Positions 17,826 through 21,441 of a stretch of 64,000 nt of DNA are shown piece after piece. The DNA is taken from NCBI RefSeq assembly GCF_003334335.1, contig NZ_QOWQ01000012.1, one strand, 5' to 3'. Numbering within the stretch: position 1 is the first letter of the stretch; every line of letters begins with the position of its first letter. This stretch comes from Escherichia coli (GTDB lineage: Bacteria; Pseudomonadota; Gammaproteobacteria; Enterobacterales; Enterobacteriaceae). Position numbers and translations under genes: made by a program. The notes under the pieces were generated by a model. The model saw only the letters and a program-made list of their open reading frames with translations. It did no database searches and was not told the DNA's origin.

Positions 17826-19290
<1,465 letters not shown>

Positions 19291-19332
19291 TGTTCCTCCT
19301 CACCCGCAACCACTCCGGGTGTTCAATAAGGC

Positions 19333-19380
19333 TATCCCTTAATTGTGCATGCTGTTGCGACTATGCACAATTAAGGGATA
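19333..19380. repeat. 18-bp perfect inverted repeat with 12-nt spacer in the panE/yajQ divergent intergenic region
   Basis: TATCCCTTAATTGTGCAT-gctgttgcgact-ATGCACAATTAAGGGATA, read directly; not REP-like; a second short palindrome GTCCTGgtgCAGGAC follows at 19382-19396. Confidence 0.9.
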
Positions 19381-19457
19381 CGTCCTGGTGCAGGACTGTC
19401 GGTTATTTAACTTTGCGGGTATTATGCTTCGCATCAAAAATGAAGGGAGAGGAAAAG

Positions 19458-19949
19458 ATGCCATCTTTCGATATTGTCTCTGAAGTTGATCTTCAGGAAG
19501 CACGTAACGCGGTCGATAACGCGAGCCGCGAAGTGGAGTCCCGTTTTGACTTCCGTAACGTTGAAGCCTCATTTGAGCTGAACGACGCCAGCAAAACCAT
19601 CAAAGTGTTGAGCGAGTCCGATTTCCAGGTCAATCAGTTGCTGGATATTCTGCGTGCCAAGCTGCTGAAGCGCGGCATTGAAGGCAGTTCGCTGGATGTA
19701 CCGGAGAATATCGTTCATAGCGGTAAAACCTGGTTTGTGGAAGCGAAACTGAAACAGGGCATTGAGAGCGCGACCCAGAAGAAAATCGTCAAGATGATCA
19801 AAGACAGCAAACTGAAAGTGCAGGCGCAAATTCAGGGCGATGAAATCCGCGTAACGGGCAAATCTCGTGATGATTTGCAGGCTGTCATGGCGATGGTACG
19901 TGGTGGCGATCTCGGTCAGCCGTTCCAGTTCAAAAACTTCCGCGATTAA
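19458..19949 (+). CDS. yajQ: nucleotide-binding protein YajQ
   Basis: Internal ATG at 19458 gives 163 aa starting [19 protein letters not shown]; RBS GGGAGAGG at 19445-19452; the supplied ORF's 56-codon upstream extension runs through the palindrome and is rejected. Confidence 0.93.
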
Positions 19950-19977: not shown

Positions 19978-20061
19978 AGATGCGGCATGAACGCCTGATT
20001 CGGCCTACAAAGGTTTGTAATTCAGAAACTTTGTAGGCCTGATAAGCGTAGCGCAGCAGGC
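19978..20061. repeat. BIME composed of two inverted REP elements
   Basis: GATGCGGCATGAACGCCTGATTCGGCCTACA and TGTAGGCCTGATAAGCGTAGCGCAGCAGGC flanking a short palindromic linker, between yajQ and the yajR 3' end. Confidence 0.8.
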
Positions 20062-20076
20062 AATTCGCCGCGTTTT

Positions 20077-21441
20077 TTATGCCTGACGAATTGCCTGTTC
20101 TATCTCAAAGCGATTCGTCACTTTGCTGTCGATTTTCACATAAGCTGAATGTTCTTCTTCTGCAATCAACACTTCTTTGATGCCTTCAGTTTCTAGCAAA
20201 CGCACTTTTAACGCCTCGTTTGCGGCAATGTTCGCCGGGATTTCAATGCGCAAACTGCTGACATACGGCGGTTCTTTCATGGTACTGGCGACTGTCAGCC
20301 ACACTGCGGCCAGCATTGCGCCAGCGAGAAATACCCCCTGACCGTCAAACATGCCGTTAATCCAGCCGCCCAGCGAACCGCCAATCGCCACGCCAAGAAA
20401 CTGGCTGGTGGAGTAAACACCCATCGCCGTACCTTTGTAACCTGCTGGCGACTCTTTACTGATAAGTGAGGGCAGGAGGGCTTCCATCAAATTAAACGCC
20501 ACAAAGAAAAGCTGCACGCCGACCACCAGTTGCCAGAACTGCGTTTGCGCGTTCCACAACACAATTTCCGCAACCACGATCAACCCGACGCAGAAGACAA
20601 AGACTTGCTTCATTTTGCGCTTAACTTCAGCGTAGATAATGAAAGGCACGACCGAGCCAAAGGCGATTAGCATTGTCGCCAGATAGACCTTCCAGTGTTC
20701 AGCCGCCGGGAACCCTGCATCAGCCAGTTGTCCGGGCAGGGCAACAAACGTCGACATCAGCAAAATATGCAGACACATAATGCCAAAGTTGAGTTTCAGC
20801 AGCCGCGGTTCCGCCAGCACTTTACTGAAACTGCCTTTCACCATTCCGGACTCACGATTAAGTACGTGAGTGCTACTGTTGGGCACAACCCAAATGGTCA
20901 ACGCAATGCCGGTCGTTGCCAGAATAGCGATCATCCAGAACAGCGCGTGCAGCCCAAGTTTGTGAGTGATGATCGGGCCAAGCACCATCGCAATGGCAAA
21001 GGTAATGCCAAAGCTCACGCCGATAAACGCCATCGCTTTGGTGCGGTTTTGTTCGCGCGTGAGATCGGAAAGCAGCGCCATAACGGCGGCGGCAATTGCT
21101 CCAGAGCCTTGTAGCGCCCGGCCCAGAATAATTCCCCAGATGGAGTCGGAAAGCGCAGCGATAACGCTACCGGCGGCAAACACCGCCAGCCCACCGACAA
21201 TTAATGGTTTGCGACCAATGCGGTCGGAAAGCAGGCCAAACGGAATCTGAAAAACGGCCTGAGTCAGACCATAAATACCAATGGCAATACCGATTAATGC
21301 TTCGCTGGCACCTTGCAGAGCCATGCCGTACGTGGTCAGAACCGGCAGAACCATAAACATGCCCAGCATGCGCAACGAGAATACGGTCCCTAAACCCCAG
21401 GTCGCGCGCCTCTCACCTGGCGTCATTTTATAATCGTTCAT
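20077..21441 (-). CDS. yajR: MFS transporter YajR
   Basis: Internal ATG gives 454 aa starting MNDYKMTPGERRATWGLGTVF; 12 predicted TM helices plus a C-terminal soluble domain. Confidence 0.92.
   Translation of the reverse strand: MNDYKMTPGERRATWGLGTVFSLRMLGMFMVLPVLTTYGMALQGASEALIGIAIGIYGLTQAVFQIPFGLLSDRIGRKPLIVGGLAVFAAGSVIAALSDSIWGIILGRALQGSGAIAAAVMALLSDLTREQNRTKAMAFIGVSFGITFAIAMVLGPIITHKLGLHALFWMIAILATTGIALTIWVVPNSSTHVLNRESGMVKGSFSKVLAEPRLLKLNFGIMCLHILLMSTFVALPGQLADAGFPAAEHWKVYLATMLIAFGSVVPFIIYAEVKRKMKQVFVFCVGLIVVAEIVLWNAQTQFWQLVVGVQLFFVAFNLMEALLPSLISKESPAGYKGTAMGVYSTSQFLGVAIGGSLGGWINGMFDGQGVFLAGAMLAAVWLTVASTMKEPPYVSSLRIEIPANIAANEALKVRLLETEGIKEVLIAEEEHSAYVKIDSKVTNRFEIEQAIRQA

Follow-up and report, generated by a model that had tools for sequence, protein, structure and literature searches.

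Introduction

The transcripts of pnp, rnc, adhE and phage T7 R1.1 are the classical RNase III-processed leaders, in which a long and near-perfect stem in the 5' leader is cut by the enzyme and the stability of the mRNA changes. These leaders are covered in the introduction of Gordon, Cameron and Pfleger (2017; mBio 8:e00128-17, PMC5371410; hereafter Gordon et al.), who compared RNA-seq coverage in the wild type and an rnc deletion mutant and selected stems with a minimum length of 22 nt. Their paper also deals with internal promoters located within an RNase III hairpin (aceEF, pflBA and metY-nusA-infB P2), and it lists an RNase III site 'Intergenic (panE-yajQ)' at position 444573 of NC_000913.3. 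Two other kinds of symmetric element are relevant here. Bidirectional promoters (Warman et al. 2021; NAR 2026, PMC12825309) are pseudo-symmetric and are used by RNA polymerase in two orientations; their -10 elements overlap and the distance between their start sites is 18 bp, or else 10 or 23 bp. REP/BIME and ERIC sequences are intergenic palindromes of enterobacterial genomes.

Here we analyse the perfect palindrome between panE and yajQ in a 64-kb window (the whole stretch of Escherichia coli DNA that was studied). With a probability that we put at roughly 0.7, the element has a dual use: as DNA it would be a mirror-image twin promoter, and as RNA, in transcripts that start further upstream inside panE, it would be an RNase III hairpin.

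Results

The inverted repeat and its locus

The genes around the palindrome are thiI (+), yajL (-), panE (-), yajQ (+) and yajR (-). The coding sequence of panE (2-dehydropantoate 2-reductase; 18379-19290, minus strand) is the first of its operon, for which the first-pass annotation had given the order yajL-panE; the order is panE-yajL, with panE promoter-proximal. The gene for the nucleotide-binding protein YajQ occupies positions 19458-19949 on the plus strand. Every base of the window is identical to E. coli K-12 MG1655 over the 251 aligned bases from 19250 to 19500, and published coordinates were converted accordingly (window = NC_000913.3 minus 425225; window = U00096.2 minus 424449). Among papers that name these genes, a Salmonella Dublin study that mentions panE and yajQ deals with an IS1 element inserted in panE, which is unrelated to the palindrome, and in a Hi-C study yajQ is merely a tag site.

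A repeat search of the window placed the left arm of the inverted repeat at 19333-19350 (TATCCCTTAATTGTGCAT) and the right arm at 19363-19380 (ATGCACAATTAAGGGATA); neither is assigned to a strand. The arms are 18 nt each, 100% complementary and separated by a 12-nt spacer (19351-19362), exactly as first annotated; in the RNA hairpin these 12 nt make up the loop, and in the DNA they occupy the middle of the 17-bp promoter spacers described below. The left edge is 42 nt from the start codon of panE (19290) and 77 nt separate the right arm from the ATG of yajQ (19458), and the distances in the first-pass annotation stand as well. The same holds for its statement that a perfect 18-bp dyad is improbable by chance. 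No other perfect inverted repeat in the window is as long (the runner-up has 12-nt arms), the longest perfect arm in 30 randomised windows was at most 14 nt, and the analytic expectation for arms of at least 18 nt with loops of up to 40 nt is 3.8e-5 per window. Allowing up to 3 mismatches, the arm sequence occurs only twice in the window, and at least two matches were obtained in 0 of 100 shuffles. The inverted repeat is real and far above chance.

The arms have 33% G+C. An intrinsic terminator was rejected: the stem is followed by CGUCCUGG, which contains no U-tract, and a terminator scan returned 0 sites, in keeping with the original description of the dyad as AT-rich and free of a U-tail. 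A permissive search of Rfam 15 gave only a chance-level snoRNA match (E = 4.8) elsewhere in the panE/yajQ spacer, and membership of an Rfam family was likewise rejected. A dispersed repeat, MITE or other mobile element was dismissed because each of 5425 E. coli genomes has the dyad at a single locus and no phage matched; the '2 places' counted per genome are the palindrome matching itself on both strands, and the records behind the plasmid matches are 1.2-4.9 Mb long and seem to be chromosomal sequence entered as plasmids. The dyad resembles REP/BIME and ERIC in being an intergenic palindrome of an enterobacterial genome, but it is single-copy, AT-rich and located between divergent starts, not at 3' ends, and the view that it is not a REP is sustained.

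Correspondence with a published RNase III site

The palindrome had not been recognised as a described site, and on this point the first-pass annotation has to be corrected: the panE/yajQ dyad is the RNase III site already published by Gordon et al. (Table 1 and Table S1, PMC5371410). Their position 444573 corresponds to window 19348 on the plus strand, inside the left arm and 3 bp from the loop end. The two are the same object, the same hairpin being drawn by Gordon et al., with both strands considered, cleavage reported and an effect on yajQ stability. At 444573 they counted 96 reads in the rnc mutant against 2-3 in the wild type. Purified RNase III cut in vitro transcripts of both strands (scored 'Y'), 5'RACE mapped the cuts to the predicted stem, and the panE-sense RNA had several cut sites in vitro (PMC5371410). 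The templates for these transcripts, mapped here, start at 19152(+) and 19503(-) and both span the dyad. The half-life of yajQ mRNA was ~6 min in the wild type and ~3 min in the rnc mutant; that of panE mRNA was unaltered in the mutant. Cleavage at the dyad stabilises the message, the opposite of its effect in pnp and rnc, although the palindrome shares with these two, and with adhE and T7 R1.1, the long near-perfect leader stem, the RNase III cut and the change in mRNA stability.

Gordon et al. place the structure in 'the 5' UTR of yajQ', the promoter that supplies it not being mapped, and remark that a complementary hairpin is also possible in panE-sense RNA. Their paper makes no mention of the panE-yajL and yajQ P2 starts inside the DNA of the stem, or of a restriction of the structure to Escherichia and Citrobacter (PMC5371410).

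Transcription start sites around the dyad

Start sites were taken from 5'-triphosphate maps: the plus-strand rows of Cappable-seq (Ettwiller 2016, U00096.2), SMRT-Cappable-seq (Yan 2018, NC_000913.3) and Kim et al. (2012). In the SMRT-Cappable-seq tables forward values were read as 0-based and reverse values as 1-based, because thrL is listed at 147 and a constant 1-nt offset exists relative to Cappable-seq.

The main yajQ promoter, P1 (19420-19433, plus strand), has a -10 element TATTAT at 19420-19425, a start at 19433 and a 25-nt leader; the start is the locus maximum of the Cappable-seq plus-strand rows (443882, score 63.7) and is also listed by SMRT-Cappable-seq (444657). In our alignment GGTATTATGC at P1 is invariant across Enterobacterales. 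The second yajQ start, that of P2, lies within the right arm at 19378 (443827, score 43.2 in the Cappable-seq plus-strand rows; 444602 in SMRT-Cappable-seq). The third promoter, P3 (19179-19191, plus strand), is situated inside the panE coding sequence and antisense to it, with a -10 element TACAAT at 19179-19184 and a start at G19191. P3 corresponds to 443640 in the Cappable-seq plus-strand rows (score 35.9) and to 443640(+) in Kim et al. 2012 (29 reads, 267-nt 5'UTR), where it is the sole yajQ start listed; no panE, P2 or P1 start is found among the starts of that list. On the minus strand, the SMRT-Cappable-seq operon table gives a single start for panE-yajL (b0425, b0424), at 444560 reverse, i.e. 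window 19335. This start comes from one dataset, and library preparation might create a spurious start call beside so stable a stem.

The P3 isoform, with its start in two independent datasets (Cappable-seq plus-strand rows and Kim et al.), has a 267-nt leader that contains both arms of the dyad, and among the starts in the Cappable-seq plus-strand rows, Kim et al. 2012 and SMRT-Cappable-seq it is the only one that yields a transcript with the whole hairpin. The other three of the four mRNAs of the locus are free of it: P1 and P2 begin to the right of the hairpin or in its last 3 nt, and the panE-yajL mRNA begins within the three outermost nucleotides of the left arm and extends outwards from the dyad. 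No minus-strand transcript through the dyad is listed in the three tables, Cappable-seq being represented by its plus-strand rows. The first-pass annotation had offered a transcribed leader hairpin for yajQ and/or the panE operon, with start-site mapping as the check. According to the published start tables both arms do occur in a native plus-strand transcript, and the proposal is supported for the long P3 isoform of yajQ (start at 19191, RNase III cleavage, yajQ stability); it fails for the P1, P2 and panE-yajL mRNAs, which exclude the hairpin. In this respect the locus differs from pnp, rnc, adhE and T7 R1.1, since two of the three yajQ isoforms lack the stem.

P3 is absent from the full-length operon list of SMRT-Cappable-seq. 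This would fit cutting of P3 transcripts before yajQ, because a transcript that has been cut cannot join the P3 cap to yajQ in a full-length read. The P3 isoform is the likely native substrate of RNase III. For cleavage in vivo this is an assignment that we infer, because the RNA-seq of Gordon et al. was not strand-specific and the RNAs that they transcribed in vitro carried artificial 5' ends, the native hairpin-bearing transcript not being identified by them (PMC5371410).

Mirror-image starts inside the palindrome

The starts at 19335(-) and 19378(+) occupy exact mirror positions in the palindrome (19333 + 19380 - 19378 = 19335). The minus-strand start was predicted from the symmetry and the 19378 start before the SMRT-Cappable-seq table gave 444560 reverse. 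On both strands the start lies 7 nt after CACAAT, and TTGTGC is found 17 nt upstream of CACAAT. For yajQ P2 (19343-19378, plus strand), the -35-like TTGTGC is at 19343-19348 and the -10-like CACAAT at 19366-19371, with a 17-nt spacer, a start at A19378 and an 80-nt leader. The panE-yajL promoter (19335-19370, minus strand) is the exact mirror of P2, with the -35-like TTGTGC at 19370-19365, the -10-like CACAAT at 19347-19342, a 17-nt spacer and a 45-nt leader. The basis of this arrangement is the heptamer ATTGTGC in each arm, which would supply the -35 (TTGTGC) on one strand and the -10 (CACAAT) on the other.

The 5'-triphosphate starts within the dyad are thus on both strands, that on the plus strand in the Cappable-seq rows for this strand and in SMRT-Cappable-seq, that on the minus strand in one dataset. 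The match of the hexamers to the consensus is weak (TTGTGC 3/6, CACAAT 4/6, in total 7/12) and the geometry is exact on both strands; a consensus promoter scan of the panE/yajQ spacer at a threshold of 9/12 found no promoter, the weak hexamers falling below it. The hexamers are read directly from the sequence, and their assignment as promoter elements is drawn from the geometry and the 5'-triphosphate data. The arm blocks that are invariant between Escherichia and seven Citrobacter sequences, ATTGT and ACAAT, are the cores of the hexamers. We infer that panE-yajL and yajQ P2 have overlapping divergent promoters of the sigma-70 type, with the dyad as their common core.

The arrangement would be an overlapping divergent promoter pair, which is ordinary in E. 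coli and unusual here through its perfect symmetry. Like the bidirectional promoters of Warman et al. (2021; NAR 2026, PMC12825309), it combines symmetry with two polymerase orientations, divergent mRNAs and likely competition. Unlike them, it has starts 43 bp apart, each -10 overlaps the opposite -35 and not the opposite -10, and each arm contains 18 perfect base pairs; the palindrome was therefore not assigned to that class. In the literature we found no description of the mirror-image starts, of a promoter role or of a lineage-specific origin of the palindrome, and a search by the start-site coordinates returned only unrelated papers.

The first-pass annotation considered the dyad to be the right size for the operator of a dimeric regulator. 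A dimeric or tetrameric factor, or NtrC, would then bind both arms of the palindrome and either repress or activate panE-yajL and yajQ in common, which is compatible with a promoter function of the same DNA. The perfect two-fold symmetry, placed exactly over both core promoters, speaks for such a site. The centres of the half-sites are 30 bp apart, however, and the arms are 18 bp long, dimensions quite unlike those of a typical dimer operator. An NtrC genomic-SELEX peak is present in the panE/yajQ spacer (U00096.2 443846, about window 19397), but it has 41% intensity at array resolution and lies about 17 bp to the right of the dyad. Similarly, three TGCAC/GTGCA motifs are found at 19346-19350, 19364-19368 and 19387-19391, with a spacing unlike the NtrC consensus TGCACC-N5-GGTGCA. 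To our knowledge, no motif of CRP, FNR, NsrR, PdhR or NtrC fits the spacing of the dyad, and a literature search revealed no regulator of it. Finally, the arms of the Citrobacter counterpart have diverged asymmetrically (6-9 mismatches in 25 positions, see below), which is not tolerable for a symmetric operator. With the low-resolution NtrC peak as the only hint, we regard an operator as quite improbable, a distance of 30 bp between the centres being unusual for a dimer.

RNA folding and the RNase III substrate

The 18-bp stem is the dominant structure on both strands, with folding energies of -35.7 and -35.2 kcal/mol for 76 nt and z-scores of -6.2 and -7.5 for the two strands, and it also forms when the full panE/yajQ spacer is folded. 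On both strands the 18 perfect base pairs are extended by two G-C pairs across a small internal loop. The resulting stem has the length recognised by RNase III (~20 bp, about two helical turns) and is slightly below the 22 used for selection by Gordon et al.

A small 6-bp hairpin, GUCCUG-gug-CAGGAC, is located at 19382-19396 on the plus strand, where it follows the P2 start after 4 nt and the large stem closely on the 3' side; the 'stabilising hairpin' of Gordon et al. is presumably this structure. A single-nucleotide polymorphism of E. coli at 19392 (A>G) keeps its pairing as U·G on the plus strand. On the minus strand, the 45-nt panE leader contains a conserved stem-loop (CACCCG/CGGGUG; 19301-19321) directly 5' of the Shine-Dalgarno sequence, which covaries in other genera (CACCUG/CAGGUG and other variants).

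The substrate of RNase III in vivo could in principle be a sense/antisense duplex of the P3 yajQ leader with the panE mRNA, and not the hairpin. The two RNAs, running rightwards from 19191 and leftwards from 19335, overlap by 145 nt in perfect complementarity, and with unstranded RNA-seq Gordon et al. could not exclude antisense involvement (PMC5371410). The mapped cut at 19348, however, is 13 nt outside the 19191-19335 overlap and therefore belongs to the intramolecular stem; moreover, RNase III cut single in vitro transcripts of either strand, with the 5'RACE ends in the predicted stem. As the sole substrate the duplex was rejected for the mapped site, and as the substrate in place of the hairpin we consider it rather unlikely, somewhat less so than the other alternatives discussed here; the P3/panE duplex may be cut by RNase III as well.

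Conservation of the palindrome

Of 5426 complete E. coli genomes, 5425 have one copy of the panE/yajQ spacer, and in 5384 of these 5425 the 48-bp dyad segment is identical. The variants that were sampled are point differences outside the dyad (at 19392, 19400 and 19417) and IS3-family insertions in the spacer of two strains, one of them inside the left arm. In E. albertii the dyad is identical and the flanks have 5 changes. About 7 variable sites in 119 flank bp compare with 0 in 48 dyad bp (P about 0.09), which, with so few variable sites, is suggestive of an excess conservation of the dyad.

The divergent arrangement of panE and yajQ persists across Enterobacterales, but the hairpin does not. 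It is absent from Salmonella, Enterobacter, Leclercia, Lelliottia, Pseudescherichia and Superficieibacter, which have spacers of about 121-129 bp, compared with 167 bp in Escherichia and 174 bp in Citrobacter (C. werkmanii, C. youngae, C. freundii and other isolates, with seven sequences in the stem comparison). The difference is an insertion of ~50 nt that is essentially the hairpin. Conservation within the Enterobacteriaceae, named as a check in the first-pass annotation, is therefore partial: the dyad is identical in E. coli and E. albertii, degenerate in Citrobacter and missing from Salmonella, Enterobacter, Leclercia, Lelliottia and Pseudescherichia.

In Citrobacter the stem is degenerate as DNA, with asymmetric arm divergence, but it is retained as RNA on one strand. 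Stem energies on the panE-sense versus the other strand were -32.5/-22.2, -22.7/-13.8 and -24.9/-13.7 kcal/mol. In the seven sequences, G·U pairs occupied 35 cells on the panE-sense strand and 2 on the other, or 10 stem positions versus 1 (one-sided binomial P about 0.006), and one compensatory exchange of A-U for G-C separates Escherichia and Citrobacter. A -10-like TATACT (TATAAT in the Salmonella counterpart) adjoins the Citrobacter stem upstream on the panE strand, and from its position the panE mRNA would begin with the hairpin. In Escherichia this ancestral hexamer reads TGCACC and is now part of the 19382-19396 hairpin. Conversely, the TACAAT that forms the -10 element of P3 is confined to Escherichia, the genus with the perfect plus-strand stem; its counterpart in Citrobacter and Salmonella is TGCAAT, TGCAGT or TACAGT.

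These observations bear on two other explanations. The dyad might be mainly a hairpin of the panE leader on the minus strand, acting as a 5'-terminal stabiliser or RNase III site. The Citrobacter stems, with their much better folding and their G·U pairs on the panE-sense strand and the TATACT immediately upstream, agree with this, as does the cleavage of panE-sense RNA at several sites in vitro. In E. coli an upstream minus-strand promoter would be needed, and a CATAAT is available on the minus strand at 19428-19423. Against it, the TATACT has been mutated to TGCACC in Escherichia, the sole reported panE-yajL start of E. coli is 19335, from which the mRNA carries 3 nt of the dyad, and the stability of panE mRNA was unaltered in the rnc mutant (PMC5371410). 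For E. coli a principal role in the panE leader thus appears unlikely.

An equally unlikely explanation is that a palindrome was inserted in the ancestor of Escherichia and Citrobacter, that its perfection is unselected and maintained by intrastrand template switching, and that the promoters and the RNase III cut are by-products. Quasipalindrome correction is well documented in E. coli, and template switching explains the perfect outer halves of the arms, which promoter function does not. The distribution of the ~50-nt insertion, present in Escherichia and Citrobacter and missing from the ~125-bp spacers of Salmonella, Enterobacter, Pseudescherichia and others, which lack the whole hairpin, is as this explanation predicts, and the variable sites in the flanks are too few to prove purifying selection on the arms (P about 0.09). 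The dyad, however, holds the only panE-yajL start reported by SMRT-Cappable-seq. The ancestral TATACT/TATAAT upstream of panE has been destroyed in Escherichia (TGCACC), and the dyad is therefore now needed for panE expression. Furthermore, the palindrome is single-copy in E. coli with no plasmid or phage copies, unlike an active mobile family, and the bias in Citrobacter of 10 versus 1 G·U positions argues for selection at the RNA level over neutral decay.

Discussion

In the mechanism that we propose for the mirror-image promoter and RNase III hairpin, one orientation of the bound polymerase would produce the panE-yajL mRNA from 19335 with its 45-nt leader, and the opposite orientation the yajQ P2 mRNA from 19378 with its 80-nt leader. 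The two binding modes would be mutually exclusive, because both promoters occupy the same ~45 bp. The complete dyad would be present as RNA only in read-through transcripts that start at 19191 (P3), where the 18-bp perfect stem with its two additional base pairs in the loop would be cut by RNase III around 19348 and at the partner position 19365. The cut would split the anti-panE 5' segment from the yajQ message and leave a 5'-monophosphate yajQ mRNA whose 5' end lies ~11-13 nt upstream of the P2 start and before the 19382-19396 hairpin. The published outcome of RNase III action at the dyad is the longer half-life of yajQ mRNA in the wild type (PMC5371410). Start sites, in vitro cleavage, rnc-dependent coverage and half-lives are taken from the work of others; the anatomy, symmetry, folding, population invariance and phylogenetic distribution come from the present analysis; and the hexamer assignments, the competition between polymerases and the reason for a perfect palindrome are our interpretation of both.

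The closest relatives of this arrangement are aceEF, pflBA and metY-nusA-infB P2. As in these systems, the stem exists only in upstream read-through RNA and encloses the -35, the -10 and the start of the downstream promoter, and the 5' end created by cleavage is near that of the internal-promoter transcript (here, an expected 3'-arm cut at about 19365-19367 and a P2 start at 19378). The panE/yajQ dyad differs in that its promoter is doubled, mirror-symmetric and directed at two divergent operons, and in that the upstream promoter sits inside the divergent gene and is antisense to it.

Two features are accounted for in part. The twofold change in the half-life of bulk yajQ mRNA is not fully explained by processing of the P3 isoform, since in the Cappable-seq plus-strand rows P3 has a score of 35.9 compared with 43.2 for P2 and 63.7 for P1. 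Moreover, the inner halves of the arms suffice for promoter function, which leaves the perfect complementarity over 18 bp unexplained.

As to the origin, the most economical reading of a limited number of genomes has three steps. The palindromic insertion would first have served as a hairpin in the panE leader; the old panE promoter would then have been lost in Escherichia, so that transcription now starts inside the palindrome; and the new antisense promoter P3 would finally have come to feed the plus-strand hairpin to RNase III. A more ambitious proposal is that all of this constitutes a single evolved device: a twin promoter that couples the expression of panE-yajL and YajQ, together with P3-fed trimming by RNase III to a P2-like message and release of anti-panE RNA. 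Its ancestor would have been a hairpin at the 5' terminus of panE mRNA, on which selection at the RNA level would still act in Citrobacter. We put this forward tentatively and would give it slightly less than even odds.

The site and the kind of element have been published and the start sites are public, so that the symmetry of the promoters and their lineage-specific origin represent a modest refinement. The palindrome would also lend itself to examining the suggestion of Gordon et al. that RNase III shortens read-through RNAs so that they come to look like the transcripts of an internal promoter (PMC5371410). It offers a case of promoter turnover, in which Escherichia no longer has the ancestral panE -10 and a promoter that came with a lineage-specific palindromic insertion has taken its place, and the strand-biased G·U pairs of Citrobacter illustrate a way to assign a DNA palindrome to one RNA strand. 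With two mirror-image promoters and an RNase III substrate in one 48-bp sequence, the locus would be a test bed for polymerase competition where divergent promoters overlap. If the proposal is true, the choice of orientation by RNA polymerase couples the expression of the pantothenate/deglycase operon to that of YajQ.

Conserved P1 region and the start of YajQ

The proximal yajQ promoter, P1 (start at 19433, plus strand), lies in a conserved block at 19418–19457 that runs up to the yajQ ATG and holds the P1 −10 element (TATTAT; the opposite strand reads CATAAT). Within this block GGTATTATGC is invariant from Escherichia through Lelliottia and the other 30 nt are highly conserved; the 25-nt P1 leader is nearly constant between genera. 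A mechanically called reading frame of 219 aa starts at a TTG at 19290 and continues on the plus strand to 19949, spanning the entire panE/yajQ spacer and the 18-bp palindrome (arms at 19333–19350 and 19363–19380) before entering yajQ. Correspondingly extended YajQ proteins of 219–224 aa are annotated in some public records (for example in Shigella dysenteriae; proteins P0002, P0018, P0019 and P0021). These are almost certainly mis-called start codons, because transcription starts at 19378 (P2, inside the palindrome) and 19433.

Elements flanking the palindrome

A small hairpin (GTCCTG-gtg-CAGGAC, 19382–19396) is found 4 nt downstream of the P2 start, at the position where other genera have −10-like TATACT/TATAAT sequences on the panE strand. 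The A>G SNP at 19392, common in E. coli, lets this hairpin stay paired on the yajQ-sense strand alone, through a U·G pair. In the same region, genomic-SELEX placed an NtrC peak of 41% intensity in the panE/yajQ spacer at about 19397 (U00096.2 443846; PMC8743547). TGGTGCA occurs close to this peak (19385–19391) and TGCAC/GTGCA motifs are present at the inner end of each palindrome arm, but the spacing of these motifs does not match the NtrC consensus.

On the panE side, the 5'UTR contains a stem-loop (19301–19321, minus strand) with a 6-bp stem, CACCCG...CGGGUG, the end of which is directly adjoined by the Shine-Dalgarno sequence. The stem-loop is kept in many Enterobacteriaceae with compensatory changes: the stem is CACCUG/CAGGUG in Citrobacter and Salmonella, and CAUCUGCG/CGCGGAUG-like or CAUUCGCG/CGCGAAUG-like in other genera. 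This stem-loop may affect translation or stability of panE.

Insertions in the spacer and repeats downstream of yajQ

IS3-family insertions are present in the 167-bp spacer of two E. coli strains (L086, NZ_CP019256.1; L002, NZ_LT883142.1), at sites around 19341 and 19404. One, IS1203, lies within the left arm of the palindrome; the other is about 24 bp to the right of it and cuts yajQ off from the palindrome promoters. In a further enterobacterial locus (L089, Logan ERR10017301, 510–700), with a YajQ that is 93% identical, the spacer measures 191 bp and carries an insertion that is different from, and unrelated to, the Escherichia/Citrobacter hairpin, yet in roughly the same place. Insertions may recur at the hairpin point of the spacer.

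The convergent yajQ/yajR spacer holds two more perfect inverted repeats of 11 bp, at 20002–20039 and at 20057–20097; a T-run sits inside the second. These repeats probably represent the yajQ and yajR terminators, or a REP-like unit.

Antisense promoter within panE

The distal yajQ promoter, P3, is Escherichia-specific and located within panE codons (TACAAT; 19179–19191, plus strand), where it runs antisense to the gene's first 100 nt. Its start at 19191 is present in two start-site datasets. Since the resulting transcript shares a 145-nt overlap with the panE mRNA and also crosses the panE promoter, it could act at panE as an antisense RNA or through transcriptional interference.
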